Assembly (NCBI GenBank): GCA_021162425.1
Contig: JAGGYQ010000022.1
Span: 1-60,646 of the forward strand
Reading direction: 5' to 3'
DNA length: 60,646 bases
Source of the DNA: Candidatus Aenigmatarchaeota archaeon
GTDB taxonomy: Archaea > Aenigmatarchaeota > Aenigmatarchaeia > QMZP01 > QMZT01
Made by a program: the position numbers and the translations under genes. Every line of letters begins with the position of its first letter. The first letter of the stretch is position 1. The notes beneath the pieces are model-generated. The model saw nothing but the letters and a program-made list of their open reading frames with translations, ran no database searches and was not told the origin of the DNA. Below, piece by piece: positions 37,601 through 59,446 of this stretch.

Positions 37601-39161
37601 AAGACAACCAGAGGTCTGCAACGGGATAGACGACGATTGCGATGGAGTGATAGATAATTTATGGGGAACATATTCCAACAAATTCTGCGGCTGTTACAAC
37701 GGTGAGCCGAAAAAAGAAGAGATATGCAACGGAATAGATGACGACTGCGACGGAATAATAGATGATGGCCTTTCAAACTGTGGATGCTCGTTTGATACAA
37801 TTGTCAATGCAACGAATATAAACAGAATGGCCTCTTTGATAAACACAAAAAGGATGTCCGAAGAGGTATGTAACAACATAGATGACAATTGCGACGGTAT
37901 AATAGATAATGTCAACAAAACGCAGTCATGTTTTTGTTCAGGCGGGTTTGAAGGCAATCCGCTTAATAGGATAGAGTTTTGCAACGGGATAGACGACGAC
38001 TGCGACGGAATAATAGACGATGTCAGCAATCCAGAGACATGTGGCTGTTATCAGGGTGAACAGCCATCTGCAGAAGTGTGTGACGGGGTGGACAACGATT
38101 GCGATGGGCTGGTTGACGAGGATTGGCCAGAACTCGGGTCTGCATGTGGCTATGGCGCATGTAAAGGCGGTGTGTTCGTATGCTCGGATGACAAGCAAGG
38201 TGTTGTCTGTTCAACAGGGCCTGGCGGGCCCGAAGACAAATCCAGCGAGGAGATATGCGGGGATGGAATAGACAACGACTGTGACGGGGCGATAGACGAA
38301 TCATGCGAATGCGATGTCGTAGGAAAAACCAAGGAATGTGGAACAGATGTTGGCGAATGTAAAAAGGGTGTGCAGACATGCACGGATGACGGCTGGGGAC
38401 CGTGTGTAGGCTCGGTAGGGCCACAGCCAGAGGTCTGCGACGGAAAGGACAACGACTGCGATGGGGTGATAGATAATTCGCCCTATTGCGGATGCTACGG
38501 TGACAAGAACCCGGCCACCGAAATCTGCAACGGAATAGACGATGACTGCGACGGGATTGTTGATAACGTAAATGGTGGCTCCTCTGTGGAATCAACCAAG
38601 TGCGGTTGCTATGGCATGCAGTTCGGAAAGGGAGCAAAAACAGAAATATGCAACGGGATAGATGACGACTGCGACGGAACGATAGATAATGTTAAGGGCG
38701 GTTCATCTGTTGCAGCTACGCGATGCGCGTGCTATAATGGCGGACAGCCGTCCGTCGAAACCTGCAACGGAATAGACGATGACTGCGACGGAATAATAGA
38801 CGAGGATTGGCCAACGCTAGGCAAGCCGTGTGGAGAGGGCATATGTGCAGGTGTATATGTTTGTTCGGAGGATGGGAAGACAGTAGTATGTAATGGGGCA
38901 GAGCCTGAGGTCGAAATATGCGACGGAAAGGACAACGACTGCGACGGGGCGATTGACGAAGGTTGCTTTGGAGCCGGAGTGAGCAGTTGCGAAAACGGTG
39001 TGCAGGACGGGGACGAAGAGGGGGTTGACTGCGGTGGCACATGCCCGAATCCGTGTGCTCCTGTCAAGCAAATGCCCATTAGTGGAGAATGGATAATGGT
39101 ATTCATAGCGATAGTTGTAATAATCGTTATTCTGGGATTCGCTCTCATGTATTTCAAATAA
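31656..39161 (+). CDS. giant (2501 aa) doubly membrane-anchored extracellular multidomain protein
   Basis: N-terminal signal anchor 'IIVLLSSLFILGIYFVLL'. Then a Gly linker and Cys knot, a Hint domain, a PA14-like segment ('FRIYPDDGARIFV'), 6 CNGIDDDCDG repeats, DUF2341-like and LamG-like modules, and 15 more repeats. It ends with 'DCGGTCPNPC' and the C-terminal TM 'WIMVFIAIVVIIVILGFALMYF'. Confidence 0.85.
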   Translation: MESQLLYMDRADLKKIIVLLSSLFILGIYFVLLPAPVTSYESTIPTIRTTFPVNNDLSEKVGRETMGLVVAGEPIKKDVNLTFNYPFPLGFGEANITATVTDSSGNVVFEKTLWLIPFLERWGIVKNKKYVYKPDYFNFSIIVKGANVTYAPKKFEAVVVQRLREPDVNDESDCNGKWKIWGRVIKGKEEAQVKDHYCSGPWDFNELGIGYTCSNMAGWEGSGGGGGETCFGDGEPCQTNEDCCQGCFCIRGTCHCPEPEASFLPGTKISLHHGTKNIEFIRTGDKVLSFDNGKIVVKKVSSVRSPIRTDHYYVLRTKNREVEVTENHEFYTPEGFRKVSEINVGDDVYVLEGNKLATEKIIFKKIIHRPVNVYDFEVEGTHTFFANGFAVHNDASVGIIKGAWDNNGKAWESSVQENTLLYFEVGDSKHVPNEPAPNKGIDGIEWKTAHSWKLETYIHPARSVGSEDFRIYPDDGARIFVYHLNLNNGEWEQVFNTSCLLSDRYAQGKSTGCVVKGFKITDTGEKSWYKFDVYLYNDPGGRTGSGEEDTNPLGIRIEDKQATDNSLFDLFSSKDKRVCISSEAPGADGAEIKTVGSVFGNQGLVEVRDLTMPSTDFELKNPKCGDDVICDLRAACGSDEYEGLETTKYGWIINHRIYPESWEKRETAVKRRGYIEANGKKIKFDPSSLKRANRRRFIPPDVKYSGGIYKCRKNWPAWEYECNAGDRYSYKRGSDEIKCCYVSEFDINPDDSITLNNYESGYEYIINFLPPKGSKLCAIAETKSGSPQEIYKAHYTNQLCDTKTGENCCYCRKGYGCKLNCLNENEEPGYSFALPFDTSGQTWEIKNIGIEILPEPAGVVDLNAEGNAKDGWKITAKISESAQNLLYRNFTIPINLYDDFGIIAPEKHGRYNLKIKVTYAGQPSYARYENLTTFYSVGCTKENESRLFYNETLYPGTKGIGACKPGKQICHDLSRYPAYVDFEWEYENTHDYPVYPTNETCNGIDDDCNGLVDDIGGFDWIINQMVSTGVFSPYKITKCGCFETQPSVETCNGIDDDCDGVIDNKKKTIFVNTCDESVINCTNQGNPYTFCKQLYNSSLCELREVEINIPKNLTINTCTEKVRKCMENEHIKRVSFFAKAMKTKYTYDECKHLYDDVSCILENVYINVLGDTCACSNGGQPSVETCNGIDDDCDGIIDDVSNPETCGCSYLTDIAEIEENKKNGDYSCNGIDDDCDGIIDEDAANCACARRPPAEVRNIKNKVREMCDGIDNDCDGLVDEDFPEIGKPCGYGLCSGGVYVCNVHGDEAVCNTTVNPDETFSGNAMKLSHEEVCDLKDNDCDYSIDEDCECTPEGAVKVCGYQSGIYYRDKQNLDNVCNEVIEKLKKLITWAEAPENVKYRRLITVENTEDVYLKNYPVMISLNTAMLKNYGRVRRDGGDIRIVPEGEETYLDWANATKFNWPKTDIWFRADIRPHELKKFYVYYGNPTATYKPKQISEILGIPYERGVFLLCHFDNSSACEGNMVPEHEKRAYFTYGKYDLGVVVNDLGVLSYPTSENFNKNRGTIEVWVKPDDFEETHYIFYSEDFYGNPQFKIYFNASGLFFDVYDRQGDMHRVNGSGLTLGRWGHIAASWDTLHGMNLYINGRLVDSKEITWNMNDIGLDVYIGCNSTGSARSPVMDELVIRSQMLSEEKIRTDMRYYEPSVLLGPEETLNQTKTTSSNIDIFRKCNEMLENVTTSGDERKATILSLCDSVRICNKTDFPINPISECTFGVQECLNGVWGSCSGVQPKTEICNQKDDDCNGVVDDILFPETCACSNGGQPSVETCNGIDDDCDGIVDNVMGGNSVESTHCGCFNQTVNITQRHAEPEEACNGIDDNCNGIIDEGLDNCACEGTVFSPYNNTWAQAISVETCNGIDDDCDGVIDNPWQKNGSQATKFKYLGASCSMVNSRCVGGVYVCSLDGKSLECNTMSDNALGGEDKRQPEVCNGIDDDCDGVIDNLWGTYSNKFCGCYNGEPKKEEICNGIDDDCDGIIDDGLSNCGCSFDTIVNATNINRMASLINTKRMSEEVCNNIDDNCDGIIDNVNKTQSCFCSGGFEGNPLNRIEFCNGIDDDCDGIIDDVSNPETCGCYQGEQPSAEVCDGVDNDCDGLVDEDWPELGSACGYGACKGGVFVCSDDKQGVVCSTGPGGPEDKSSEEICGDGIDNDCDGAIDESCECDVVGKTKECGTDVGECKKGVQTCTDDGWGPCVGSVGPQPEVCDGKDNDCDGVIDNSPYCGCYGDKNPATEICNGIDDDCDGIVDNVNGGSSVESTKCGCYGMQFGKGAKTEICNGIDDDCDGTIDNVKGGSSVAATRCACYNGGQPSVETCNGIDDDCDGIIDEDWPTLGKPCGEGICAGVYVCSEDGKTVVCNGAEPEVEICDGKDNDCDGAIDEGCFGAGVSSCENGVQDGDEEGVDCGGTCPNPCAPVKQMPISGEWIMVFIAIVVIIVILGFALMYFK
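32439..32834 (+). other. mini Hint / bacterial-intein-like (BIL) domain, aa 262-393 of the giant protein
   Basis: Block A 'SFLPGTKI', block B 'TENH' (TxxH), block F 'VYDFEVEGTHTFFANG', block G 'FAVHN'. No endonuclease insert. The residue after HN is Asp. Confidence 0.7.
34650..35700 (+). repeat. coding repeat array 1: 6 copies of C-[ND]-G-x-D-[DN]-[DN]-C-[DN]-G (MopE-like putative metal-binding motif)
   Basis: Counted in the translated ORF (ETCNGIDDDCNGLVDD ... EVCDLKDNDCDYSIDED). Confidence 0.8.
35169..35280 (+). repeat. hub of perfect intragenic DNA repeats (matches three distant segments)
   Basis: 35169-35227 equals 37095-37153 (59/59). 35187-35251 equals 38739-38803 (65/65). 35229-35280 equals 37998-38049 (52/52). 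All compared base by base. Confidence 0.9.
35850..36745 (+). other. DUF2341-like plus LamG/concanavalin-like module of the giant protein
   Basis: 'YRRLITVENTEDVYLKNYPVMISL...DGGDIRIV...FYVYYGNP' is DUF2341-like. 'RGTIEVWVKPDD...GRWGHIAASWD...LYINGRLV...MDELVIRS' is LamG-like. Confidence 0.6.
37095..37153 (+). repeat. 59-bp perfect copy of 35169-35227
   Basis: Base-by-base comparison. The flanking bases differ. Confidence 0.9.
37998..38049 (+). repeat. 52-bp perfect copy of 35229-35280
   Basis: Base-by-base comparison. Both copies encode DCDGIIDDVSNPETCGC. Confidence 0.9.
38739..38803 (+). repeat. 65-bp perfect copy of 35187-35251
   Basis: Base-by-base comparison. Both copies encode GGQPSVETCNGIDDDCDGIID. 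Confidence 0.9.
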
Positions 39162-43477: not shown

Positions 43478-43604
43478 CGCCCCGGTAGTCTAGTCCGGTC
43501 AAGGATACCGGCCTTTCGAGTGGGCTTCGCCCTGACTTGAAAGGTTCGATGGCGAGAGCCGATGAAGACAGCCGAAGACCCGGGTTCAAATCCCGGCCGG
43601 GGCA
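43478..43604 (+). tRNA. tRNA-Glu (anticodon TTC) with a 52-nt canonical (37/38) intron at 43518-43569
   Basis: Acceptor GCCCCGG/CCGGGGC plus A73. Anticodon loop CTTTCG|A. BHB central helix CUUU (43512-15) / GAAG (43564-67), with 3-nt bulges CGA and ACA. T arm CCGGG-TTCAAAT-CCCGG. Confidence 0.9.
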
Positions 43605-44941: not shown

Positions 44942-45238
44942 TTACTTTTTGAGCGTTATGTCTATTGTCGAGACGTTAATCTCTGACCCGTCTTCTCCCT
45001 TGACTTTCTCTGTGCCTATCTCTATTTCCCTCTTGACGTCGCTAATGAATCTATTCCTGACAACTTCTGCGACATCAACCGCTCTGGAAATTGATTTCCC
45101 TCTTGCCTTTATGTGGACTTCTTTCACACCTTCCGAAAACTGTGTTATTACAGCCAATACATACGACATTGTTGGTTTTTTGCCGACGAAAATCACGTTA
45201 TCGTCTGCCTTTACTTTTTCTTCAGTTTTTTCTGCCAT
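44942..45238 (-). CDS. albA: chromatin protein Alba
   Basis: '[21 protein letters not shown]...[24 protein letters not shown]'. The ATG at 45238 is preceded by GGGAGGTG; the track start at 45247 is GTG inside the Shine-Dalgarno sequence. Confidence 0.9.
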
Positions 45239-45323
45239 TTTACGCACCTCCCTTTACACAGTTAAAGCTTGTCTTCTGCCACGAGAGCAGTGTCGTTGTA
45301 TTATAAAATTTACTCGTGGATTT

Positions 45324-45672: not shown

Positions 45673-46464
45673 TTATGTATCAACAAAAAAGGTAAAGGTA
45701 ACAGGCTCGTACAAAACTTTCTTGTCAACATACACGGGTATTTTAAAATCTTTTTGTGTTATGTTTATCTTGATAATTTTGTTTCCCGGGTGTATTTCAT
45801 GTAAAACCGCATCCACATCTAAATCATTTTCACTCAAAGGATAGCCATCCAGATGCTTCCCTTTTTCACTCGGGAGACTAATTTTCGATAAGGAGTCGAA
45901 GATTTCATATGCTTTTTTGAGCATTTTCGAAAATTTAATCCCGTAAATTTTTTCAATATCAACCGATTTCTCGAACCTCATTGAGACCTTACCTTGTTCA
46001 CCGGTCTTGGTATCGCAATAATACAAACTTTTCCCTGATTTAATCGAGACGCTCACTCCGTCATCCATAAGCTTGACTTCTATATCATCCTCGATGAATG
46101 TCGGGAGGTTCACGGATTTGCCGAAGAATATGTATTTTTCTTTTGTGTAGTTGTTAAGGTTCAAGACTATTGTTTTTTTGAGGGCGGAAACAACTTCGCT
46201 TTCTTTTGGTTTTTTTGTCCATGTTTTTTCCAGCCCGCCGTTTTTCCCTACGTCATATATCGCCTGGAAAACAGCATAGTCCAGCGAGGCTTTAAAATAA
46301 ATATCTGCGGCTTCTACCGCGTTTTGTATGACATATATATCTTCTGTAAACCTTATGTCTTTGGTTTGGGTTTTTTTTGCAAAGAAAATCGTAACCATCG
46401 AGGCAATTGTTAGTGCAATCACTATGAAAATTATTGTAAGGAACACGACACCATATGCCTTCAT
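45673..46464 (-). CDS. N-terminally anchored (prepilin-like leader MKAYG|VVFL...) hypothetical protein, last gene of the operon
   Basis: Short leader ending in Gly, then about 24 hydrophobic residues. The start overlaps the upstream stop (ATGA). Confidence 0.6.
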   Translation of the reverse strand: MKAYGVVFLTIIFIVIALTIASMVTIFFAKKTQTKDIRFTEDIYVIQNAVEAADIYFKASLDYAVFQAIYDVGKNGGLEKTWTKKPKESEVVSALKKTIVLNLNNYTKEKYIFFGKSVNLPTFIEDDIEVKLMDDGVSVSIKSGKSLYYCDTKTGEQGKVSMRFEKSVDIEKIYGIKFSKMLKKAYEIFDSLSKISLPSEKGKHLDGYPLSENDLDVDAVLHEIHPGNKIIKINITQKDFKIPVYVDKKVLYEPVTFTFFVDT

Positions 46465-47429
46465 TCTATCAGCCCCATTTTCCCCCTTCTACCGCCCGGT
46501 AATGGTATGTCTATATAAAAAGATGCTTCGTTTTCTGAAATTGACTGCGACCCCTGCTCGCAATTTTCAGGAAATTCAGGAAAATACGGGCATGGGTCTA
46601 CCGATGTTTCATCATGCTTTGTCATTTGTTTGTTTATTTCGAAATGGAGGTGCGGACCTGTTGAGTATCCTGTATTGCCCGTCTTGCCTATTACATCACC
46701 TTTTCTCACCTCATCTCCCACATCCACTCTAACCTCGTTTAAATGGTCGTAATGAGTATAAAATGTCTCGCCGTTTACTCTATGTTTTATCACGACAAAA
46801 TTGCCCAGCCCGCCATTACAGCAGCAATACTTATCTTTCGTCTCTTTGCATGATATATGGCATCCTCCGCTTGGGGACGCCTCGCAACCTCTTCCAACAC
46901 TCGCAACCGTTCCGTCATACACAGCATGGACATTCGTCCCTATCTCGACTGCGAAGTCCACTCCGCCATGAAAATCTGGCTTTCTGTTGATAATTCGCCA
47001 CCCGTAGCCGCTGCTTATCTTGTGTGTTTCAACAGGCCATCCGATTTTGAAATTGTCTGGCAGGCTGATCGTTGCTTTGCTTGTGCCCTTGCCGTATACC
47101 ATGGATTTACCGCTCGATAAATCACGAACTATCAGACCTGATGCTCCTATGTGACGGAGCGTAGTAAATATCTGTTTCCTAATATCTTCAGGCATACCGT
47201 CAAATGAACCTATTATTTCCATGTAGTTCATTCCACCCCTTTCACACTTAACAAACGAAATTATTTTGGAGCCCTTGTCCTGAACATCGAGATATACATT
47301 CACGTCGCCTTTTATCTTTACTATTCCATATCTGCTCAAATAGAACAGAAACATAAGAGCCATTAAAAACACGACTATTACTACCACCAGCATAACGGTA
47401 TCAAAGATTCCTTTACGAAACCTCGACAT
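46461..47429 (-). CDS. M23/LytM-family metallopeptidase with a class III (prepilin)-like N-terminus
   Basis: 'MSRFRKG|IFDTVMLVVVIVVFL' leader. Catalytic motifs 'HGGVDF' (HxxxD) and 'GNTGYSTGPHLHFEI' (HxH). Confidence 0.85.
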   Translation of the reverse strand: MSRFRKGIFDTVMLVVVIVVFLMALMFLFYLSRYGIVKIKGDVNVYLDVQDKGSKIISFVKCERGGMNYMEIIGSFDGMPEDIRKQIFTTLRHIGASGLIVRDLSSGKSMVYGKGTSKATISLPDNFKIGWPVETHKISSGYGWRIINRKPDFHGGVDFAVEIGTNVHAVYDGTVASVGRGCEASPSGGCHISCKETKDKYCCCNGGLGNFVVIKHRVNGETFYTHYDHLNEVRVDVGDEVRKGDVIGKTGNTGYSTGPHLHFEINKQMTKHDETSVDPCPYFPEFPENCEQGSQSISENEASFYIDIPLPGGRRGKMGLIE

Positions 47430-48171
47430 ACAATCTCCCCATGTGAATTGTTTTTGCAATATGCATGACCACGCACGTTACGCTTGACAACGAATCTCCA
47501 CACTCATTAATAGGAGCGAGTCCATGTGGTATAAACGAGTTCACGGGTGTTTCTTTTTCGAAATTAACGAAAACGTAAAATTTATTGAGTTCCAATTCCA
47601 ATTTCGATTTTATATAATTTTTAAGTTCGCGAGGAGCGACGGAAGGGATGTGGCTCACATCCTTCTCAAACATACTCTTCGGGTAAATCTCTATCAAGAC
47701 ATCATCCCCTGCCCAGTTTTCCGCTATTTTCTGAACAACAAGGATGTAAGAGCCTTTAAGATTGTATTTCTTGTCCTCGATGTAGTCAACATCGTATGAT
47801 ATCGGTACCCATATGTCATGGCTGTTTCTCGATGGCTCGAATTTTTTATCGAAAAGCCACTCCCTTTTATTTTCAACATCAACCACAAAAGCGTGTATGG
47901 AAGGACTTTTTATATTGCATAACTCCTTCACCTGCTTGCCGGCAGCAACGTAAAGGAAGTAGGCAGATATGGTGTTGTCATCGGCTAGGTTTGTGAAGCA
48001 ATGCCTCACTATATGAGTTGCTTCTATCGCTTTTAATTTATTCACATCACTGAGAACAGCCCCTTTGTAATTAAGGAGACCGCCCTCGAGAATTGTTATT
48101 AGCAGTATTATACCAAAGCCAAATATTACAAATCCCACAAATGTATTGAACGTGTCTTCGGCTTTCAGCAT
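47413..48171 (-). CDS. N-terminally anchored hypothetical protein
   Basis: 'MLKAEDTFNTFVGFVIFGFGIILLITIL'. The first ATG lies 1 nt after the upstream stop. Confidence 0.55.
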   Translation of the reverse strand: MLKAEDTFNTFVGFVIFGFGIILLITILEGGLLNYKGAVLSDVNKLKAIEATHIVRHCFTNLADDNTISAYFLYVAAGKQVKELCNIKSPSIHAFVVDVENKREWLFDKKFEPSRNSHDIWVPISYDVDYIEDKKYNLKGSYILVVQKIAENWAGDDVLIEIYPKSMFEKDVSHIPSVAPRELKNYIKSKLELELNKFYVFVNFEKETPVNSFIPHGLAPINECGDSLSSVTCVVMHIAKTIHMGRLYVEVS

Positions 48172-49205
48172 AATGCACACCTTTTATAGCAGTTGGGCTT
48201 GCTTTCGAAGCATTGTTTATACCGCATAACTTTTCTTACGTAATTTAATGTTTCATCGCCGTATATCCCCTGACAAAATTTCCCACCTTTTTCCGAATTT
48301 ATCAGAGGCTCTATCTTCTCCCAGCATCCTTCTGAACAATCTTTGCCACAGTTCTCATTCACAAGACTTTTTATCTTTCCGCAGTTGTAGTTGGCGACCG
48401 CAAGCTTCTCCTTATCATCTCCGCATTTTTCAAACAATTTTAGTTTTTGGCTTATGTATTTCACGCCGCCTTCTATGTTTTGCTCTGGTATCGTGTAATC
48501 AACGCCCATATCTTTCGCTGTCGCAGGCGTCAGCATCATAAGCCCGCAGGATATGATTTCACCGGAGGCATCTTTTGCGCATTTCACATCGCCGTTTGCA
48601 TCGCAATGCCTGAAACCGCTCTCTGCCATTATGATGGCTTTTACAAGATTCTCATCAACTTCATATCTTTGACTGTATGTCTGAATATATTTCTTTAGCT
48701 CCTCTTCTGTCGGCTCTGTGCAGAATTTCACACTCAAAAGCGATTCCACTGTTACGTCCTCGCCTTTTTTCTTGCTGAGTTTCAGGTATCTTGTTTTTTC
48801 TAATTTCAGCTCTTCACGACGGTCGAAGTTCAGAAAACCAACGAAAGGTATTTTTTCGCTTCTCACATTCCTGTCTGGCAGGGAAACTTCGACGTAATAT
48901 GTTGATGGTCTGCCCACCTTTATGAATGGAAGCTTCCAAATCCATCCTATTCTTATTCTTGAAAACTTGTCTATGGTTATCGTGAATTCGTTACCGAGGT
49001 CCATTGAAATCTCACCGCTGTCAACACTGGAAAGCGCGCTTATATACTGTGCAATTAAATGGGCGGTGTATGAAACCTTTGCCTCATCGCTCGCTTTTAT
49101 GCTCGGTGTTATTCGGTTTCCGGCGAAAAGAACCAAGATGGATACCCCTATCAACGCAACCCCGACAAACAAAATCATGTCAGCTGTAGAGCCTGTCCTT
49201 TTCAT
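48165..49205 (-). CDS. SLT-domain lytic transglycosylase with a prepilin-like N-terminus
   Basis: 'MKRTG|STADMILFVGVALIGVSILVLFAG' leader. SLT motifs 'IIMAESGF' (catalytic Glu-Ser), 'GLMML' and 'VANYNCG'. Confidence 0.85.
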   Translation of the reverse strand: MKRTGSTADMILFVGVALIGVSILVLFAGNRITPSIKASDEAKVSYTAHLIAQYISALSSVDSGEISMDLGNEFTITIDKFSRIRIGWIWKLPFIKVGRPSTYYVEVSLPDRNVRSEKIPFVGFLNFDRREELKLEKTRYLKLSKKKGEDVTVESLLSVKFCTEPTEEELKKYIQTYSQRYEVDENLVKAIIMAESGFRHCDANGDVKCAKDASGEIISCGLMMLTPATAKDMGVDYTIPEQNIEGGVKYISQKLKLFEKCGDDKEKLAVANYNCGKIKSLVNENCGKDCSEGCWEKIEPLINSEKGGKFCQGIYGDETLNYVRKVMRYKQCFESKPNCYKRCALC

Positions 49206-49206
49206 C

Positions 49207-49746
49207 TCAACATTCCCCTTTTGAGTCGACGTTAGAAACTTTATTAAGTTGAATATTCTTTGTCTCGCCGTTTTTTTGGATGTGGATGTCTAGGCAATAT
49301 ATTAGTGTTTTGCCTTCCTCGGGACCTTTTAATATTCTCTTCTTGTCGAAGTTAACATTTTTTAGGCTGGCGCAGTATGTATCTTTTGACAGGTATTTAT
49401 CAGCAAAGTTTTGCCAGAACGCAAGCTTTGACCAAAAACCGTAGGATTTTTTGTATACGACTATATACGAATATTCCTCGCCGGATTTACATTTTATGTC
49501 CCCCTTCAAATCTGTAATTTTGTTGGTTATAATCACACTGTCTATGCATTCCTTCAGCGTTATGGGAACACTCACTTCGCCGCTGCTACGCCTCACTATA
49601 TCAACAAAATTGTTCACATCGGCTACTGTCGCTCCCATACAGCCTATATAACTTATTTTTGCCACGCCCAAAAAGAAAAGCACAAGAACAAACATTATAA
49701 CAAACAATATACCGAATATCCTTTGTATGAAATCCACCGGCTCCAT
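49207..49746 (-). CDS. N-terminally anchored hypothetical protein
   Basis: 'MEPVDFIQRIFGILFVIMFVLVLFFLG'. The first ATG is at 49746. The stop lies 1 nt from the next start. Confidence 0.55.
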   Translation of the reverse strand: MEPVDFIQRIFGILFVIMFVLVLFFLGVAKISYIGCMGATVADVNNFVDIVRRSSGEVSVPITLKECIDSVIITNKITDLKGDIKCKSGEEYSYIVVYKKSYGFWSKLAFWQNFADKYLSKDTYCASLKNVNFDKKRILKGPEEGKTLIYCLDIHIQKNGETKNIQLNKVSNVDSKGEC

Positions 49747-49964
49747 ATACAATATTTTGTTTTACAAATTAAAAAGCATAAATTAAAAAGCGAGCATCTA
49801 ATAATTCCCACAGTCTGTCGATTTCAGTCCGAAAAAATATTTTTCGTAAAGGAACGGTTTCAAACACAAATCCATCTTCTCAGCCTAACGATTCTGCTAA
49901 TAGGGGAGCGATGGAGAACGGGGTTATTTTTAGACACGCCCATTAAAAAGCCACAGACTTTGTT

Positions 49965-50096
49965 CTACCCGAACAAAAAACTCTTTACCCCCTCGAAAAC
50001 CCTTCCATAAAAAACAAATAATATAAGAACAACAGCTATGGCAAGGATGAATCCAATCATATACCACACAAGCGGTGAAAATCCTTTCATTTTCAT
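49965..50096 (-). CDS. 43-aa micro-ORF with a canonical class III signal-like N-terminus (MKMKG|FSPLVWYMIGFILAIAVVLILFVF)
   Basis: Hand-translated; below the track cutoff. The ATG overlaps the stop of the preceding micro-ORF. Confidence 0.3.
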   Translation of the reverse strand: MKMKGFSPLVWYMIGFILAIAVVLILFVFYGRVFEGVKSFLFG

Positions 50097-50188
50097 ATAA
50101 CACCACTCAACTTCACAGCTAACATTGCTATCAGGACCAGCACAAATAAAACTATGAGTATTCTGCCAAGATATTGAACATCCATCAT
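50093..50188 (-). CDS. 31-aa single-TM micro-ORF (MMDVQYLGRILIVLFVLVLIAMLAVKLSGVI)
   Basis: Hand-translated; below the track cutoff. Confidence 0.25.
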   Translation of the reverse strand: MMDVQYLGRILIVLFVLVLIAMLAVKLSGVI

Positions 50189-50220
50189 AAATAAAAATTG
50201 TGGACCCTGCTATTTAAATA

Positions 50221-50598
50221 CTATTTGGATTTTTTGCAACATTTCTGACCGCTGCCGCATTGCCCTGCTATTTCCTCCTCGCCTGACTCGCACGCCTTTT
50301 TACACACACCGCCCGCCTTTTCGCAGGAAGGCTCAACACCGAAATCTTTACAGTCTTCTCTGCCTGTAAGCTCTTGGCAGCTCATGGGCTTCCCATCAAC
50401 CGTGACCATTGGCGTTGACCATGTGGGTGGGAGAACACCAATACTCCTGCATGATGATGACCCAATGTTTATGCAGTTGCTTCTTGCGTTCAGCATACTG
50501 CTGCCCTGCTGTATTCCTCTCCCGAAAATGAGAATGACAACTGTCGCTACTATGAGGATAACACTCGCAATAACAAGTAGCTCGAGCGATAACCTCAT
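50221..50598 (-). CDS. Cys-rich pilin-like protein, paralog 3 (125 aa) with a C-terminal six-Cys module
   Basis: 'MRLSLELLVIASVILIVATVVILIF', then the conserved 'N-C...SC...G..PP.W' core. An in-frame TAA lies 4 codons upstream of the ATG. Confidence 0.6.
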   Translation of the reverse strand: MRLSLELLVIASVILIVATVVILIFGRGIQQGSSMLNARSNCINIGSSSCRSIGVLPPTWSTPMVTVDGKPMSCQELTGREDCKDFGVEPSCEKAGGVCKKACESGEEEIAGQCGSGQKCCKKSK

Positions 50599-50616
50599 TC
50601 TAACACTTTATTTTTA

Positions 50617-50889
50617 TTATACACAACTCCATGTCCTCGTGTTCGGTTCGCATACACAGTTTACAAGCTCGCTGCACGTTTCGCCATTTGGGCCCACTTT
50701 ATCTGTGGTCCAGCCAGATGGATAATTTCCTGTGGATTTGCATGAGAATTCACCTGTTCGCATGCAATTGTTCTTCGCTGCCGTCAATGTCCCTAAATGT
50801 CCCATGCTTCCGCCGAACATGGTGAGGACAACTAAAGCCACCACAAGTATCACAATTGCTATGACCACAAGCTCAAGCGATAGCCTCAT
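50617..50889 (-). CDS. Cys-rich pilin-like protein, paralog 2 (90 aa)
   Basis: 'MRLSLELVVIAIVILVVALVVLTMF'. A TATA-like 'TTTTTATAC' lies about 30 nt upstream of the ATG. Confidence 0.6.
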   Translation of the reverse strand: MRLSLELVVIAIVILVVALVVLTMFGGSMGHLGTLTAAKNNCMRTGEFSCKSTGNYPSGWTTDKVGPNGETCSELVNCVCEPNTRTWSCV

Positions 50890-51061
50890 AATAAAATATA
50901 CGCAGCTCTTGTATAAAAAGTTTACCCAATTTGGCTCTGCGAATTTAATTCTGGAAAAAGAGTTTGTTGATATGATTTTTACAATTTCGAGTATTTCAAT
51001 CAGAACCGATAGGATGAGTCAAAGTTTTTCAAAAATTGCAGAGTTAAGTTGATAGAGCTTT

Positions 51062-51385
51062 CTATTTGCATGCAAATTGGTAGCCTATGACTATATCGCC
51101 TTGTTTGATGGGCTGGCAACAGGAAGATAATGAATCTTTATCTTTGCCCGTTAAATCCTTGCACGTATATGTTTTATCTCCTGTTTTAAAAACAACGTTC
51201 GTATCCCATCCGGGCGGTGCAGAGCCACCTGCCTCACACGAGTATTTTGCCATGTTCCAGCATTGGTTTCTTGCGCTGGACACCCCGCCAAACGAGCCCA
51301 TGCCGCCGCTGAATATCGAAAGCACAACAGCTGCGACAACAAGAAGCACAACGGCAATCAATACAACCTCCATTGCAAGTCTCAT
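51062..51385 (-). CDS. Cys-rich pilin-like protein, paralog 1 (107 aa)
   Basis: 'MRLAMEVVLIAVVLLVVAAVVLSIF'. A TATA-like 'TTTATATAAA' lies about 25 nt upstream of the ATG. Confidence 0.6.
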   Translation of the reverse strand: MRLAMEVVLIAVVLLVVAAVVLSIFSGGMGSFGGVSSARNQCWNMAKYSCEAGGSAPPGWDTNVVFKTGDKTYTCKDLTGKDKDSLSSCCQPIKQGDIVIGYQFACK

Positions 51386-51415
51386 ATTAAATATTAGGGC
51401 TTTTTATATAAATTC

Positions 51416-51634
51416 TCATGTGTGCCTGTCTGGGGGCGGCTTCAGATTTTCGGTGTCAGTAGGCATACCCGATGTTCCCGATTCTTTATCTGAGTGGAAA
51501 TTCTTCATATATTCGAACAGGCTGTTTGCAAAGCCCTGCGACTGACCGAACCAGTTTGTCATTAGACCCAAAACCAAAACAATGAATATCACAAGCAACA
51601 GAAGCACCACAATTACCTTCAGCCCCATTTCCAT
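51416..51634 (-). CDS. small N-terminally anchored protein (MEMG|LKVIVVLLLLVIFIVLVLGLM), first gene of the cluster
   Basis: 72-aa ORF with one TM and a polar Pro/Thr-rich tail. Confidence 0.45.
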   Translation of the reverse strand: MEMGLKVIVVLLLLVIFIVLVLGLMTNWFGQSQGFANSLFEYMKNFHSDKESGTSGMPTDTENLKPPPDRHT

Positions 51635-51708: not shown

Positions 51709-52209
51709 ATGCCCAAAAAACTGATAGAAGCCGCTCTTTTCATGAGCCCGAAACCACTCAATATCGAAGAAATATCCAAAATAGTCGGGATTTCTTCGTT
51801 AGGTGAAATAGAAAAGGTAATTGAGGGGCTCGCAAAGGAATATGAAGAAAGCAACAGAGGAATGGAAATTGTAAAACTTCCTGAAGGATGGTTCATGCGA
51901 GTTAAACAAGAGCTTCTGCCAAAAGTTGCCCATCTCACACCTTACTCCGATCTTAAAGACGGGCACAAGCGAACTCTCGCTTTGATCGCTTACAAAGAGC
52001 CCATAAAGCAGAGCGACGTCATACACATACAGGGAAACAAGGCATACGGGTATATCAAGTTCCTCGAGAAAAAGGGATTGGTAAAGACCGAAAAGCACGG
52101 GAGAACAAGAATTCTTCATCTGACATCTGAGTTTGAAAGATATTTCGGCGAACAAAGGGAAAAGATAAAAGAGATGCTTTCAAAGGCAGTTGAAACTAAA
52201 AGACTTTAA
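51709..52209 (+). CDS. scpB: segregation and condensation protein B
   Basis: 'LIEAALFMSPKPLNIEEISKIVG' and 'TLALIAYKEPIKQSDVIHIQG' double-wHTH pattern. Confidence 0.85.
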   Translation: MPKKLIEAALFMSPKPLNIEEISKIVGISSLGEIEKVIEGLAKEYEESNRGMEIVKLPEGWFMRVKQELLPKVAHLTPYSDLKDGHKRTLALIAYKEPIKQSDVIHIQGNKAYGYIKFLEKKGLVKTEKHGRTRILHLTSEFERYFGEQREKIKEMLSKAVETKRL

Positions 52210-52241: not shown

Positions 52242-54743
52242 ATGAAAACCGGGATTTTCTTCGCTTTTCTGCTGACATTCCTACTTTTGTTGCATTTGGT
52301 GAGTGCAGATTGCAACTACTACGGTGGGGACTGGCTCATCAATGAAACCGTCATCTGCAACGAAACACTTACACTCAACGGAAGCATTCTTATCGATACT
52401 TCGGGTCATCTTACACTCGAGAATGCCACAATCCTTATGAATGTAACCAGCAACGGTGGATTGAGAATAGAGGTCAACGGGACGCTCATGCTTGTCAACA
52501 CAACCATCCGCTCCGTTACGGATAAAAGGTATCTTTTTTATGCAAACGAAGGCTCGAACCTGACTATATACGCATCAACTATAAAGGGTGTTGGTGTTTC
52601 GTCAGGTGAACCTAAAAAAAGAGGCTTGTATATAGGGACGGACAACGTCAAAATAACGAGTAACGAATTTTTGGAAAATTTCTATGCCTTGCTCATATAC
52701 TCAAGCAACAACACAGTAGCAGGGAACAGGTTTTTATCCAACACAGGTATTGTGATAAGTGGTGACAACAATCTCTTTTACAACAATCTCATACAGGGAC
52801 AGGTTAACGAGCTTTATATGTCAGGTGCCAACATCACGGTAGCGAACAACAATATCTCAGGCAACAGCGATAACGGTCTCCGTATAAAAACAGAATATTC
52901 ATTGATTTTCAACAACACACTATCAGATAACGAGAACGGTGTGCTATTTGAAGGTAACCAGACAAATATTACCGGCAACACAATCCAGTCAAATAAAAAA
53001 GGTCTTGAAATATCAGGCGACCGCAACATAATTTATGGCAATTTGTTAAAAAACAACGACATTGGATTGATTATACAGGGTTCTGACAACAATATATCCG
53101 GAAACGATATAATAGACAACTCGCTTGACATATATCTTTTTTCAGCATATGACACTTCAATAAAGAACACAACCTACGCAACGCTGCAAAGGAACTATTC
53201 TGTTGTGTTCAAAACCCTGAATCTGATAGGATATCCTGTGTCAAACGCGAACATAAAACTCATAGATTCTTTTAACAGGAGCGTTTACTCTGGGCTGACC
53301 AATTCGAATGGAGAAACACCGCAACTGATGGTGACAGTCTTTTATGAAAACGGAACAAGTTATGACTACAATCCATTTTTTGTGAATACGAGCAAAGAAG
53401 GTTACAAAACAAACGAATCAGTGATTAATATAAAGTCCAGCGGTTATGTGGAAATATTTTTGAATAAAAGTGCGAGCGAAACCCATGTTAATCAAACAAA
53501 CGCCACGCTGAATATCATTCTTTTGTCACCCGAAAATAAAACGTATCTAAAGGGTGATTTGACTGATGGCATTCTTTTGGTAAATGTCAGAGGCGATGCA
53601 AATTTGTCTCGATGTGTCTATTTTCTGGAAGCGACAAGCGGGAATATGTCAAAAACGGACAACGCAACATTCGATGCAGAAGTAAATGTGAGTTCGATGG
53701 AAGGTGTTTATAAACTGTCTGTGGTTTGTAAATCGCTTGCTGGTGCAACAAATTCTACCATTGTATGGTTTACTGTATATCCAGCATATGAATGTTTTTC
53801 GGATTACGATTGCGAAAGCAATGAAATATGCGAAAATCATGAATGTGTGCGTCTGGAATGCGAATGCGGTTATGCGGAAAATCATGAATGTGTCAGTTAT
53901 GAATGTTGCGGGGATGAGGTTTGCAGCAGCGAAGAGTATTGCAATTTAAATACGCATAAATGCGAAATCGTTCCATGCAAATGCGGTGAAAGGAAAAACC
54001 ATGAATGTATTCTCGAGCCAGGACATTGCTGCACCGATGCACAATGCGAGGAAAATGAGACCTGCGTAAATGGTATATGTGTAGAGCAAATTTTATCGCT
54101 TGAAATATCTGGAGAGATCGCAGTAGGGAAAATTGTTAAAATTAAGGTGTCTGACCAAGATGGCAATCCTGTAGAAAATGTGAAAATCGAAGTGTCGTAT
54201 GTGGACGACCCTGAAAAGAAATATGAATATTATACAGATATCAATGGCGTAGCGGATGTCCCTGTTCTTTACGCGGGAAGAGTTCAGATAGTTGCCAGGA
54301 AAGCGAATTATGTGACAGGCTTTACCACGGAAGATGTCCCAGAACCGTTCAATTGGTTTTTCCTTGTGGAGGCAGCGGCTCTTATATTCTCGATAATTAT
54401 GATTGTTTTCATCTTACTGAAATTGCTGCCTGTGATAAGGTCTCCTTTCAGGCTTGAAAAAACCGTAAGCGGGACAAGTGTGATGCTTAAGATAAAGAAC
54501 AGGACCAACAAGAAGATATTTGATATGAAAGTTGTGGACTATGTGCCAAGAGGTTCTTTCATGAGATGCAACATAAAACCTGAGATAGAGCACGTAGGCT
54601 CGGATATTGACATGCTTAAATGGACGATTCTGGAGTTGAATCCAAAGGAAGAGATTGTTATTCAATACGAGGCATCCGGTTCGCTGAAAGGATTTTCTGT
54701 TGAAGTTGATGGCAGGGAGTATAAAATTGGGAAAGGCTTGTAG
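52242..54743 (+). CDS. surface protein: signal peptide, right-handed beta-helix (PbH1/NosD-like) repeats, Cys-rich module, TM helix, C-terminal domain of about 115 aa
   Basis: Repeats 'NNISGNSDNGLRI', 'NNTLSDNENGVLF' and 'TGNTIQSNKKGLEI'. Cys-rich 'ECFSDYDCESNEICENHECV...'. TM 'FFLVEAAALIFSIIMIVFILL'. Confidence 0.8.
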   Translation: MKTGIFFAFLLTFLLLLHLVSADCNYYGGDWLINETVICNETLTLNGSILIDTSGHLTLENATILMNVTSNGGLRIEVNGTLMLVNTTIRSVTDKRYLFYANEGSNLTIYASTIKGVGVSSGEPKKRGLYIGTDNVKITSNEFLENFYALLIYSSNNTVAGNRFLSNTGIVISGDNNLFYNNLIQGQVNELYMSGANITVANNNISGNSDNGLRIKTEYSLIFNNTLSDNENGVLFEGNQTNITGNTIQSNKKGLEISGDRNIIYGNLLKNNDIGLIIQGSDNNISGNDIIDNSLDIYLFSAYDTSIKNTTYATLQRNYSVVFKTLNLIGYPVSNANIKLIDSFNRSVYSGLTNSNGETPQLMVTVFYENGTSYDYNPFFVNTSKEGYKTNESVINIKSSGYVEIFLNKSASETHVNQTNATLNIILLSPENKTYLKGDLTDGILLVNVRGDANLSRCVYFLEATSGNMSKTDNATFDAEVNVSSMEGVYKLSVVCKSLAGATNSTIVWFTVYPAYECFSDYDCESNEICENHECVRLECECGYAENHECVSYECCGDEVCSSEEYCNLNTHKCEIVPCKCGERKNHECILEPGHCCTDAQCEENETCVNGICVEQILSLEISGEIAVGKIVKIKVSDQDGNPVENVKIEVSYVDDPEKKYEYYTDINGVADVPVLYAGRVQIVARKANYVTGFTTEDVPEPFNWFFLVEAAALIFSIIMIVFILLKLLPVIRSPFRLEKTVSGTSVMLKIKNRTNKKIFDMKVVDYVPRGSFMRCNIKPEIEHVGSDIDMLKWTILELNPKEEIVIQYEASGSLKGFSVEVDGREYKIGKGL

Positions 54744-57538: not shown

Positions 57539-59446
57539 CTAAAAATTCAACTCACCAATTTCTTCGAGATCGTAGAGTTTATTCATTTTGATCATACCGT
57601 TTGATATAGTGTAAAGCACATTATCTATGTAAAGGCTCCTTTTAACGGAGTATTTGTCGCCGTAAAAATAGTGTCCACTTTTCAGGAATTCATCTTTATT
57701 TTTGAAGTGTGTAATTCTTCCGAGAAACTCAAACCCATTTTCAAGTGTTACCCTGTATGCATAAGCGCCTTTATATACAAATTCGCCGTATATATACGGT
57801 GGTAGATTTTCTTTATCTCCCTTTATCTCAGCGAGCAACACGGGGATGACAAGGAGATTTTTATTCTTGCTGAAGAGAAAAGCCTTGTGGTTGTGCAAAG
57901 CGTAGGAATCCGTCCCTCTATCGCCTATCACAACCTTGCCTATCTCTTTTGGATTGGAAACATCTGTCACATCGAATAAAGCGATCTTCAATCCCTGATA
58001 CCAGGCGAAATCATCCTCTCCCGCGGGAACTGTTTCCTTGCCTATGCCTATTATATGGTTCTCATCGTAGGGATGAAGATAATCAGAATAGCCCGGTATC
58101 TTCAGTTTGCCCAAAATTTTTGGATTTTTCGGGTCAGATAAATCTATTACAAAGAACGGATCGGTTTTTCTGAATGTAACAAGGTATGCCCGCTCACCCA
58201 TGAATCTTGCCGAATATATGCTCTCGCCAGGGGCTATGTTTTCGATGTCACCGATTTGTTTGAGATTTTCATCGTAAATGTAAATGTTGTTTGATGTATT
58301 TCCGCCAAATATCGTAACCCTTCCGAGGGTTGTCGCTATTCGGAAGTATCCGTTATATTCATCCATGGAGAACTGGTTGAGTATGTGTCCTGGGACTTCG
58401 AAACTGCCTATGAATTTTATCTCCCCGTTGCCAAGGGAAAACTTGTGCACGACAGTTTTTTCTTCACCCTTTTGAACGATTTCAGGTCCTGCTCTCAGAA
58501 TCGTGAGAGGGAAGTACATTTCTGCTATGTATAGGTTTTCTTTCGATGCGTATATGCTTTGACCTGAACCAAGTATGACTCGTTTCTCCATTTTGGCTTC
58601 TGGGTCTTCCATGGAAAGAGAAGCAACTGTGATGAAAGTCTCGGGCTTTGTGTCTTCAAAATACTCGATGTCAGAGCATCCGCACAACGCTTTTGTGTCT
58701 TTACCTTCTGCGCTGTCATAAAATTCTGGAAGTATAACTTTTGCATTTTTAACAATATCTGGGTAGGAGTCTACAACAAAGTAAACATAAGGCCCTATCT
58801 TTCTAGACGAAACATAGCGACCTTCAATTTGAATTTCTCGCGTCATTTTTGGCTCACTTCTGTCAGTTATGTCATATAGCCTAACAGCAACAAAGCTTTT
58901 TCTCATGGGAAAGGGCAGCTTGGTGTTGTTGTTTTCTTTGTAGACATACCCAAACAGGAGGAGTGTATTTTTATGAACGAACATTTCGATTGGCTCAAAA
59001 TCCTTGAATTCGATTACATTTAAAATACTCGATTCCTCTGGCGGGTATGCCTTTGCTATAGCAAGTTTATTTGTTTTCATGTATTCATTTTTTTCTGTGT
59101 TGTAATAAGATGATATAGCGTAGATGTATTCGCCATCTGTCTTCACAATATCCGCTTCGTCAACACCTTCAACCTGAACATTGGTGGCTGAGAATTCAGG
59201 TGATGGACGTGAACCTGCCTGTGCGGATTCGGTTGCCCCTAACTTTCTTATAATCATGGCATTTGGATAAGATTTCTGGTATTCATCTATCATCTCAACC
59301 AAAGCACTGCATGAACTAACCTTTGATATTTTTGAATGTGCAGATTCGTTATTTTGGACGGCATAAAAAGAAACCATCATCGAAACAAGCAGAGCCAGTA
59401 TTAGAAATACCGGGGGTATTCCACCTCTAATCTTTTTTTGTGTCAT
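57539..59446 (-). CDS. secreted/anchored beta-propeller-domain protein (COG4880-like)
   Basis: N-terminal TM, 'NVQVEGVDEADIVKTDGEYIYAIS' hallmark, and a long C-terminal propeller-like region. Confidence 0.7.
   Translation of the reverse strand: MTQKKIRGGIPPVFLILALLVSMMVSFYAVQNNESAHSKISKVSSCSALVEMIDEYQKSYPNAMIIRKLGATESAQAGSRPSPEFSATNVQVEGVDEADIVKTDGEYIYAISSYYNTEKNEYMKTNKLAIAKAYPPEESSILNVIEFKDFEPIEMFVHKNTLLLFGYVYKENNNTKLPFPMRKSFVAVRLYDITDRSEPKMTREIQIEGRYVSSRKIGPYVYFVVDSYPDIVKNAKVILPEFYDSAEGKDTKALCGCSDIEYFEDTKPETFITVASLSMEDPEAKMEKRVILGSGQSIYASKENLYIAEMYFPLTILRAGPEIVQKGEEKTVVHKFSLGNGEIKFIGSFEVPGHILNQFSMDEYNGYFRIATTLGRVTIFGGNTSNNIYIYDENLKQIGDIENIAPGESIYSARFMGERAYLVTFRKTDPFFVIDLSDPKNPKILGKLKIPGYSDYLHPYDENHIIGIGKETVPAGEDDFAWYQGLKIALFDVTDVSNPKEIGKVVIGDRGTDSYALHNHKAFLFSKNKNLLVIPVLLAEIKGDKENLPPYIYGEFVYKGAYAYRVTLENGFEFLGRITHFKNKDEFLKSGHYFYGDKYSVKRSLYIDNVLYTISNGMIKMNKLYDLEEIGELNF

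Follow-up and report, generated by a model that had tools for sequence, protein, structure and literature searches.

The 60,646-bp contig JAGGYQ010000022.1, analysed here over its whole length (the window) and labelled Candidatus Aenigmarchaeota by NCBI, carries on its minus strand, from position 51634 down to 45673, a cluster of 12 genes. Two of them encode proteins with the domains of murein hydrolases, one of the SLT (GH23) type and one of the M23 peptidase family. Our comparison of this cluster with its relatives suggests a DPANN surface apparatus of prepilin-like proteins that in this lineage is equipped to cut bacterial peptidoglycan on contact, a reading to which we give a probability of about 0.5. 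A preliminary description of this DNA had listed eleven consecutive open reading frames (ORFs), all of which are present where it had placed them, and had overlooked a twelfth of 31 aa (50093-50188, minus strand), which shares an ATGA overlap with the ORF whose product begins MKMKG and is kept in relatives. The NCBI annotation covers 9 of the 12 ORFs and calls all products hypothetical except the two enzymes. Its locus tags, J7K72_01465 to J7K72_01505, leave room for nine genes; of the two mini-proteins described below, s1 is without a protein record and s2 without an nr entry.

For comparison we fetched about 15 related loci (designated L plus a number where they have to be told apart) and searched them with ten family hidden Markov models (HMMs) built from the cluster. 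In the order of transcription, the cluster opens with a 72-aa protein (51416-51634) in which an N-terminus of five residues leads into about 20 hydrophobic ones and then into a short tail. Its family, which we call MEMG, is the only small subunit that the HMMs found in every related locus, and the protein is a candidate mini-subunit of the Flp/Epd kind. Three paralogs of a second family, MRLSLE, follow. The first (51062-51385, 107 aa) is a leaderless hydrophobic N-terminal helix with a small Cys-rich ectodomain, has M1, F25, C42, C50, P57, W60, C75 and C90 as invariant residues, and is preceded by a TATA-like box. The second (50617-50889, 90 aa) is the best conserved of the three, its orthologs in L003, L007, L009 and L020-L022 being 50-59% identical. 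The third (50221-50598, 125 aa) has an extra C-terminal six-Cys, Lys-rich knot with beta-defensin-like spacing: its last 35 residues or so form a C-x6-C-x3-C-x10-C-x5-CC module, and a similar Cys knot occurs in the L007 and L009 orthologs. The Pfam model Defensin_beta matches this paralog at E 9.5e-4 and 19.6 bits, under its cut-off of 21, which we take as a lead only; the module may be a membrane- or lipid II-directed add-on. Two mini-proteins come next, s1 (50093-50188), which has 31 aa and one transmembrane helix, with orthologs that start MKG and share the C-terminal motif K(F/Y/L)xG(Y/V)(I/M), and s2 (49965-50096, 43 aa), in which the N-terminus MKMKG precedes a hydrophobic stretch.

The remaining five genes encode larger proteins. 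The first, f181 (49207-49752, 181 aa), combines an N-terminal helix with an ectodomain that has five invariant Cys residues, and opens a block of coupled genes. It is followed by the SLT protein (48165-49205, 346 aa), in which a scaffold N-domain of about 160 aa is fused to a GH23/SLT domain (aa ~165-346, with E195). Next comes f255 (47413-48180), for which the likely start is the ATG at 48171 (MLKAED...) and whose orthologs start MKG(D/G). The M23 protein (46461-47429, 322/332 aa) consists of an N-domain of about 130 aa, beginning MSRFRKG, and an M23 domain inserted before a conserved C-terminal strand. The last, f263 (45673-46464, 263 aa), has an N-terminus of the type MK(A/G), a 70-residue N-terminal helix and an alpha/beta domain. 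Two insertions were seen among these proteins. In the f255 proteins of the window, L007 and L011, about 110 residues (aa ~135-240) without a family match lie between two conserved strands and are missing from orthologs of 137-166 aa. The M23 domain, in turn, is interrupted at aa ~178-207 of its protein by an insertion with seven Cys residues (GRGCEASPSGGCHISCKETKDKYCCCNGG), which occurs in three of four close orthologs and is absent from L007.

Re-reading the junctions from the sequence bore out the earlier observation that the distal five genes are joined by a 1-nt gap or by overlaps, one of them ATGA and one of 17 nt. The 1-nt gap separates f181 from the SLT gene; SLT and f255 overlap by 16 nt if f255 begins at a GTG, or by 7 nt if it begins at the ATG at 48171; f255 and the M23 gene overlap by 17 nt with the ATG at 47429, the start also chosen by NCBI; and the M23 gene and f263 share a 4-nt ATGA. 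Such tight translational coupling of five scaffold genes suggests a stoichiometric complex. The upstream part of the cluster contains intergenic gaps of 172 and 212 nt, A/T-rich TATA-like boxes are visible in the sequence some 25-30 nt ahead of five or more cluster genes, and in relatives the cluster is interrupted by a large gene on the opposite strand. Together these features indicate a gene cluster with several probable transcription units rather than one operon. The run of genes that had been called an eleven-gene operon is thus real, but it comprises 12 genes and is translationally coupled only in its last five.

Both enzymes look catalytically competent. The SLT domain scores 54.2 bits against PF01464 (cut-off 21.3, E 1.3e-14) and the M23 domain 88.2 bits against Peptidase_M23, PF01551 (cut-off 28.7, E 4.1e-25), and in a scan with Pfam and NCBIfam these were the sole matches above cut-off in the cluster. 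The catalytic Glu195-Ser pair of the SLT domain is invariant in five family members, with one E-N variant, and the M23 residues H154xxxD158, H229 and H260xH262 are invariant in four orthologs. The complete sets of catalytic motifs claimed for the two proteins are therefore present; the M23 protein keeps the metal ligands and the catalytic His, unlike the degenerate LytM factors EnvC and NlpD. Its closest relatives of solved structure are zoocin A (1.2e-14) and lysostaphin (2.2e-14).

The enzymes appear to be one of several outfits that the same set of proteins can carry. A phmmer search with the 263-aa protein across 1.84 billion representative proteins returned 105 family clusters at E <= 1e-3, among which 10 carry PG_binding_1, seven an SLT domain, three Amidase_3, and one a GDSL/SGNH esterase together with Amidase_3; by predicted domain content, f263 is the main carrier of extra murein domains in relatives. 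In L016 the gene in the M23 position is without a catalytic domain and f263 bears the GDSL esterase and Amidase_3; in L017 a second SLT domain sits on f263. L009 has a LysM-LysM-Amidase_3 gene within the cluster (699-2249), and L007 and L014 each have an extra, free SLT gene. L018 (6700-11200) and L019 (7840-11070) contain the complete scaffold beside the chromatin protein gene Alba with no enzyme at all: the genes in the SLT position encode about 160 aa, the N-domain only, and those in the M23 position about 145 aa. Since the enzyme-free M23 orthologs retain the N-domain as well as the final 20 residues, the M23 domain represents an insertion. Judged from these domain exchanges, the scaffold behaves as a modular tool-holder, which is the decisive outcome of the comparison.

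All payloads with a predicted function cut or bind murein, and the GDSL esterase would be compatible with peptidoglycan de-O-acetylation. With payloads so restricted, the likeliest substrate by far is bacterial peptidoglycan and not an archaeal polymer. The proposal of the preliminary description that the enzymes act on a foreign bacterial wall is thereby strongly supported, since Amidase_3, LysM, PG_binding_1, a second SLT domain and a GDSL esterase, on the same scaffold in relatives, all point to murein as the probable target. Chitinase-like activities do occur among GH23 enzymes, and peptides other than those of murein can be cut by M23 enzymes, so that one may think instead of the archaeon's own envelope at division or of the wall of an archaeal host (pseudomurein, a glycosylated S-layer or another glycan). 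The cluster adjoins ScpB, a chromosome segregation gene, and the known hosts of DPANN are all archaea (PMC8407114), both of which speak for such a polymer. Nevertheless we consider it an unlikely substrate: PG_binding_1, LysM and Amidase_3 (a MurNAc-L-Ala amidase) are classic murein modules, the scaffold occurs without enzymes in sister lineages, which implies that the archaeon's own envelope does not depend on them, and no gene for murein or pseudomurein synthesis turned up in the window. The papers on pseudomurein biosynthesis that we searched name DPANN once, with regard to folate enzymes, a search that does not amount to a systematic survey. Pseudomurein, moreover, has beta-1,3 bonds and isopeptide links between L-amino acids, and its known lytic enzymes are cysteine endoisopeptidases.

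The arrangement is widely kept. The order f181-SLT-f255-M23-f263, with the small subunits upstream and with Alba and/or ScpB alongside, recurs in at least 13 independent assemblies, which include eight GTDB species representatives and, sharing the same junctions, derive from different samples and assemblers. A pattern scan for the 263-aa family in one genome per GTDB species found eight loci, labelled uncultured archaeon, Aenigmatarchaeota and, in one case, Micrarchaeota. The SLT protein has four full-length relatives of 337-418 aa that are 33-38% identical to it, and the three whose contexts were fetched (P0002, P0003 and P0005) stand in the same gene arrangement. Comparison of synteny across related archaeal metagenome-assembled genomes, as the preliminary description had suggested, therefore found both cluster and gene order preserved: the scaffold genes are in the same order in all fetched loci, and upstream of them lie a MEMG-type protein, zero to three MRLSLE proteins, s1, s2 and usually a much larger protein, which we call 'big'. 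The latter, of 620-1085 aa, is present in nearly all relatives (for example at L003 2688-5360, L007 4750-8004, L009 3774-6431 and L019 4752-7769), has a class III-like N-terminus ((K/R)GQ...) and a C-terminal transmembrane helix, and finds no match in Pfam; the window is without it, no homolog having been found elsewhere in that stretch.

In the window, Alba (44942-45247, minus strand; Pfam Alba 1.7e-19) lies 430 bp downstream of the cluster and ScpB (51709-52209, plus strand; SMC_ScpB 1.1e-33) 75 bp upstream. Alba adjoins the cluster in L002, L005, L007, L009, L011 and L016-L019 as well, and ScpB, by Pfam, in L003, L007 and L016; ScpB-like ORFs, recognised by N-terminal sequence similarity only, occupy the same position in L011 and L012. 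Other neighbours in the relatives are housekeeping genes, namely RFC, GatA/B, Rpp14, tRNA synthetases and PcrB. This fixed chromosomal position between housekeeping genes, in combination with proteins that are 25-40% identical, argues for old vertical inheritance, and by this comparison we take the cluster to have long been passed down vertically on the chromosomes of a DPANN clade.

Two more mundane origins for the hydrolases have to be weighed against this pattern. Anchored SLT and M23/CHAP hydrolases, accompanied by small single-pass membrane proteins, are typical of monoderm type IV secretion (PrgK, TraG, CwlT), and the cluster might accordingly be part of an integrated conjugative or viral element in which SLT and M23 have a VirB1, PrgK or tail-lysin role. 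The fixed position and old divergence speak against a mobile element, and so does the composition, the GC content of the cluster (0.412) being equal to that of the contig (0.402 for the window). No VirB4, VirD4, relaxase, capsid or terminase gene, and no conjugation ATPase, adjoins the cluster in the window or in the related loci; the sole integrase, in L019, lies 7 kb away beyond housekeeping genes. Relatives of the cluster were found in none of 50,697 phage records, 72,556 plasmid records and IMG/VR, and no viral structural match was obtained. The preliminary description had seen such a module as the setting in which hydrolases of this kind are expected, and we regard it as very improbable here. 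The other possibility is that the contig is bacterial or chimeric and carries ordinary bacterial wall enzymes, given that SLT and M23 domains are overwhelmingly bacterial and that the nearest relatives of both catalytic domains are bacterial. Yet archaeal markers stand on both sides, beginning within 1.5 kb of the cluster (Alba, ScpB, an intron-containing tRNA and TYW1), composition is uniform, and the same junctions in at least 13 independent assemblies leave this the most improbable explanation of all; the window can be taken as archaeal and not chimeric, as had been assumed.

Common descent within the cluster was also considered. The idea that all scaffold proteins are recent paralogs was rejected: in an all-against-all hhalign comparison of the ten families, only the N-termini of MEMG and MRLSLE proved homologous (92%), next to a weak similarity between the SLT N-domain and f255 (44%) that falls in the helix following the transmembrane segment.

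What would hold these proteins at the cell surface can be approached through their N-termini. The layout noted at the outset, a short polar start followed by about 20 hydrophobic residues, is seen in every product, and the five N-termini quoted as having a Gly before the hydrophobic stretch (MEMG, MKMKG, MKRTG, MSRFRKG and MKAYG) had been read correctly. Comparison within families divides the products into two classes. Class B, which comprises s1, s2, f181, SLT, f255, M23, f263 and big, begins with 1 to about 10 residues ending in [KR][G/A] and continues into the hydrophobic helix (MKG..., MKKGQG..., MSRFKKG...). [KR]G stands at the helix boundary in 71 of 99 members of the wide f263 family ([KR][GAS] in 91), in nine of 10 M23 proteins ([KR][GA] in all 10), in all six big proteins, and in f255 (7/10), s2 (4/5), s1 (3/4), SLT (6/10) and f181 (3/8); in the window's own copies the motif is present in s2, SLT, M23 and f263. 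By a hand count, made after the cluster members of L016 and L017 had been taken out, about four of some 28 unrelated N-terminally anchored proteins from the same loci have it. A plain signal anchor needs positive charge and not Gly or Ala, which makes this conserved motif the best evidence for class III processing, that is, by a prepilin peptidase. It is motif conservation that supports the putative class III (prepilin-type) nature of the class B N-termini and that much strengthens it.

Class A, formed by MEMG and the three MRLSLE paralogs, starts M-(R/E)-x-x-(L/I)-(E/K/R) and goes directly into the helix. MRLSLE proteins start MR(L/I)S(L/M)E and MEMG proteins ME..(L/I)(K/R), with the G of MEMG not conserved, and [KR]G is found in 0 of 8 MEMG and 0 of 13 MRLSLE sequences. 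In 20 of 23 and 14 of 15 class A genes an in-frame stop precedes the conserved Met with no other possible start in between, which leaves no room for a leader. Three pilin-like paralogs with a prepilin leader, as had been proposed, are thus not borne out, nor is such a leader on MEMG; the prepilin-type signal stands for eight families and falls for these two. The sequence LSLE resembles positions +2 to +5 of EppA-type pilins (Q-I/L-S-L/M-E), a resemblance that we take as a lead only. To place Glu at +5 the Met would have to be removed, which methionine aminopeptidase should not do before Arg. Sec signal peptides were rejected as an explanation for the small proteins, whose hydrophobic region spans about 20 residues and has no AxA site.

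Predicted structures are compatible with a pilin-like layout. The AlphaFold2 model of the SLT protein, built with five homologs (mean predicted local distance difference test, pLDDT, 75.5), has a transmembrane helix at 7-30, an amphipathic helix at 40-59, five strands between 64 and 156 and a helical catalytic domain. Foldseek placed MltF, Slt70 and MltE at the top (E 5e-7 to 1e-3) in a search dominated by the catalytic domain, in agreement with the goose-lysozyme-like fold expected of GH23. The f263 model, with 105 homologs, reached a pLDDT of 93.5 and a predicted template modelling score of 0.82, and shows one unbroken helix (residues 4-74) that leads into an alpha/beta domain; no match was found among viral models (BFVD). 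In both the SLT N-domain and f263, a long transmembrane-amphipathic N-terminal helix is predicted to pack on a beta sheet, the general layout of pilins, and we call these domains pilin-like in this sense. The ectodomains of MRLSLE and f181 are Cys-rich, which fits an extracellular location.

On the basis of these comparisons we can outline how the apparatus might work. The cluster would supply the structural components, other than a motor, of an apparatus on the cell surface that Aenigmarchaeota share with neighbouring DPANN lineages. Its universal core is made up of the MEMG subunit, s1 and s2 and the five coupled scaffold proteins (f181, SLT-N, f255, M23-N and f263), usually with big in addition. 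Class B proteins would be cut at [KR][G/A] by a peptidase of the PibD/EppA type, and the hydrophobic helix that they retain would either keep them anchored in the membrane or let them pack into a stalk or tip complex resembling a type IV filament. The five co-translated proteins could then come together in a single complex comparable to the tip or priming complex of minor pilins, while a thin stalk would be built from repeated MEMG and MRLSLE subunits. Two of the scaffold proteins have acquired murein hydrolase domains in this lineage, the GH23 lytic transglycosylase to cut glycan strands and the M23 zinc endopeptidase to cut peptide cross-links. An archaeon that has no murein and keeps such enzymes tethered points to action on contact with a bacterium, in whose sacculus the enzymes would open a local hole, for attachment, for access to the host membrane, or for killing and feeding. 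Gene content, the conservation of genes and motifs, intact active sites, the exchange of murein-specific domains and inheritance on the chromosome are shown by the comparisons above; what we infer in this outline is that the signals are processed, that the proteins join in one complex or filament and face the outside, and that the target is bacterial and is reached by contact.

Several observations weigh against a prepilin-like apparatus of this kind, the first being the apparent absence of a motor. Our search for motor and peptidase genes covered this contig and up to 10 kb around the cluster in the roughly 15 related loci. No ATPase of the T2SSE/FlaI type, no FlaJ/TadC platform protein and no A24 peptidase was found among the 39 window ORFs scanned with Pfam, a few ORFs remaining unannotated, in agreement with the preliminary description, and none lies within 10 kb of the cluster in the related loci. 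A Walker-A screen for T2SSE/FlaI ATPases in all fetched loci returned only an ABC transporter and SRP54/FtsY, and a metagenome scan with a narrowed MRLSLE alignment gave three loci only and no new contexts with motors. On the other side of the balance, homologs of FlaI, FlaJ and FlaG are reported from most Aenigmarchaeota metagenome-assembled genomes (PMC8407114). The signals themselves are also imperfect. PF04021 (Class_IIIsignal) and PF07790 (Pilin_N) matched no cluster product, not even at E <= 10 and with isolated N-termini, so the search with pilin models that had been suggested gave no support. A FlaFind-like regular expression fits 21 of 99 f263 relatives and zero to one member of each other family; most families are without Gln at +1; and the SLT and f255 families have several polar residues between [KR]G and the hydrophobic core, which is atypical of class III signals. 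A cleavable leader is missing from MEMG and MRLSLE, the proteins presumed to be the repeating subunits. Neither is a pilin fold in evidence: the f263 model has no pilin or other fold match in the PDB (best Foldseek E 5e-3, TM-score below 0.3), and profile searches of PDB sequences with MRLSLE, f255, f181 and f263 gave no meaningful relatives and no solved pilin. Finally, all cultivated DPANN have archaeal hosts, and the dedicated study of Aenigmarchaeota argues for archaeal hosts (PMC8407114).

Part of this list counts in favour of the strongest alternative, in which there is no filament and the helices are plain membrane anchors for a murein-degrading complex that scavenges wall debris or lyses competitor bacteria. 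The motor genes not found near the cluster, the missing pilin HMM or fold match and the leaderless candidate subunits would all suit it. Debris would yield muropeptides, amino sugars and amino acids to the Aenigmarchaeota, which are without many biosynthetic pathways and have few transporters (PMC8407114), and the anchors could work as they do in the sugar-binding proteins with class III signals of the Sulfolobus bindosome. Zoocin A and lysostaphin, the closest solved relatives of the M23 protein, are bacteriolytic weapons, and peptidoglycan hydrolases used as weapons by archaea have a precedent (PMC12352652). A plain anchor, however, leaves unexplained why eight families keep Gly or Ala after Lys or Arg at the helix boundary, and why five to seven enzyme-free scaffold proteins and helix-only subunits are kept in lineages without the hydrolases; scavenging enzymes, besides, are usually secreted or provided with cell-wall-binding modules and not tethered. 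We therefore hold this alternative to be a serious one that nonetheless has the odds against it. For the filament- or surface-displayed device of the preliminary description this means that a surface device directed against the bacterial wall is well supported, while the filament is one of two live options. The most elaborate form of a filament, an organelle of a kind not known before in which leaderless pilins (MEMG and MRLSLE) made without a prepilin peptidase carry a modular five-protein tip that, with its transglycosylase and lysostaphin-like endopeptidase, drills the peptidoglycan of a living bacterium, is tentative and somewhat less probable still.

Comparison with known systems places the proposed prepilin-like apparatus between several of them. 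Set beside the tip/priming complexes of minor pilins for its general layout, the cluster would share with them a set of four or five tightly coupled genes whose prepilin-type products are unequal in size, a very large surface protein, separate small repeating subunits and a functional 'business end' that sits on the tip. It has no detectable sequence or fold relationship to minor-pilin operons, is archaeal, includes two members with murein hydrolase domains, has no adjacent assembly genes and has putative repeating subunits that are leaderless. Among archaeal systems, filament machinery of the Epd-type 'system 1' occurs in DPANN, and its main pilin is without a globular domain (bioRxiv 10.64898/2026.04.22.720090); the cluster resembles it in its presumed main subunit, which is likewise tiny and without a globular domain. 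With the Epd pilus and the Sulfolobus bindosome it shares short [KR]G leaders before a hydrophobic helix and class III signals on proteins beyond simple pilins (PMC4858521), but it differs from both in having no PF04021 or PF07790 match, mostly no Gln at +1, and no ATPase, platform or EppA gene at the locus. Enzyme payloads against a foreign polymer are not described for archaeal type IV filament systems in the literature that we searched, and surveys of these filaments do not mention murein hydrolases (PMC4858521; bioRxiv 10.64898/2026.04.22.720090).

Murein-directed enzymes as such have been noticed in archaea before. In Woesearchaeota and Pacearchaeota, lytic transglycosylases of DPANN have been reported, each as a single protein and often a giant one, and read as hints of a bacterial host or prey (PMC8204110, PMC9723730, PMC10936187), and an M23 enzyme of a halophilic archaeon, the zoocin A homolog 'Woldo' of Halogranum, kills bacteria (PMC12352652). 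The cluster resembles these cases in combining archaeal GH23/M23 enzymes with bacterial murein as the only plausible substrate, and in inviting a reading as episymbiosis, predation or antagonism. Those are single proteins, however, often very large or secreted and with wall-binding domains, whereas the two enzymes here are 320-350-aa members of a multi-protein scaffold with prepilin-type anchors. The 346-aa SLT protein is not of the fam00969 type (extracellular proteins of up to ~3000 aa with one SLT domain; PMC8204110), from which it differs in architecture.

A tethered lytic transglycosylase that works with an endopeptidase or amidase to open murein locally, encoded inside the operon of a surface machine, also recalls bacterial systems. 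Wall hydrolases of trans-envelope machines or of engulfment include VirB1, PrgK, TraG and CwlT of type IV secretion, FlgJ, BfpH and PilT of R64 from type IV pili, and the engulfment complex SpoIID-SpoIIP-SpoIIM. All of these open the producer's own wall; the producer here has none, and there are neither secretion ATPases nor a mobile context. The dedicated Aenigmarchaeota study does not mention peptidoglycan, murein or cell wall (PMC8407114), and we found no description of this cluster in the literature searched, which did not cover subscription journals. Murein enzymes on a conserved, prepilin-anchored scaffold in Aenigmarchaeota thus appear to be new, with no earlier report in that literature.

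The remainder of the window contains mainly housekeeping genes, such as PFOR, FeoB, a wyosine/TYW1-type radical SAM enzyme, cysteine desulfurases, glutamate dehydrogenase and PEPCK. The intron-containing tRNA lies at 43479-43604 (plus strand), about 2 kb downstream of the cluster, where a 126-nt Rfam match spans the full 71-nt model; ARAGORN did not report it. Three large ORFs with features of surface proteins were also observed. At 31656-39161 (plus strand) an ORF of 2501 aa has a PT-HINT/intein-like domain, at least seven MopE metal-binding repeats and a Laminin_G_3 domain, and looks, from this domain content, like the giant surface proteins common in DPANN genomes. Following ScpB, at 52242-54743 (plus strand), is an 833-aa NosD/beta-helix surface protein with a Sec-type signal and Cys-rich repeats; a large beta-helix protein is similarly placed in L007 and probably in L011. 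At 57539-59446 (minus strand), a 635-aa Beta_propel (PF09826) protein begins MTQKKIRGG and continues into a hydrophobic stretch, possibly a class III-type signal outside the cluster.

Single SLT genes of Woesearchaeota and Pacearchaeota have repeatedly prompted the question whether any DPANN live on bacteria instead of archaea, and the hosts of Aenigmarchaeota have until now been presumed archaeal. The cluster turns this hint of bacterial partners into a defined, testable system, a vertically inherited surface scaffold with exchangeable murein-directed payloads, and it suggests that bacteria serve these archaea as targets of physical attack or as food. The enzyme-free sister versions in L018 and L019 provide natural controls, and the small catalytic domains and the N-termini provide testable handles. 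The work also adds several protein families without Pfam, PDB or viral relatives, one of which, f263, could be modelled with very high confidence, and it raises the possibility of pilin-like subunits without a leader peptide. If an organelle of leaderless pilins that drills into bacterial walls were indeed to be built from this cluster, it would be the first molecular machinery for the episymbiosis or predation of an archaeon on bacteria.

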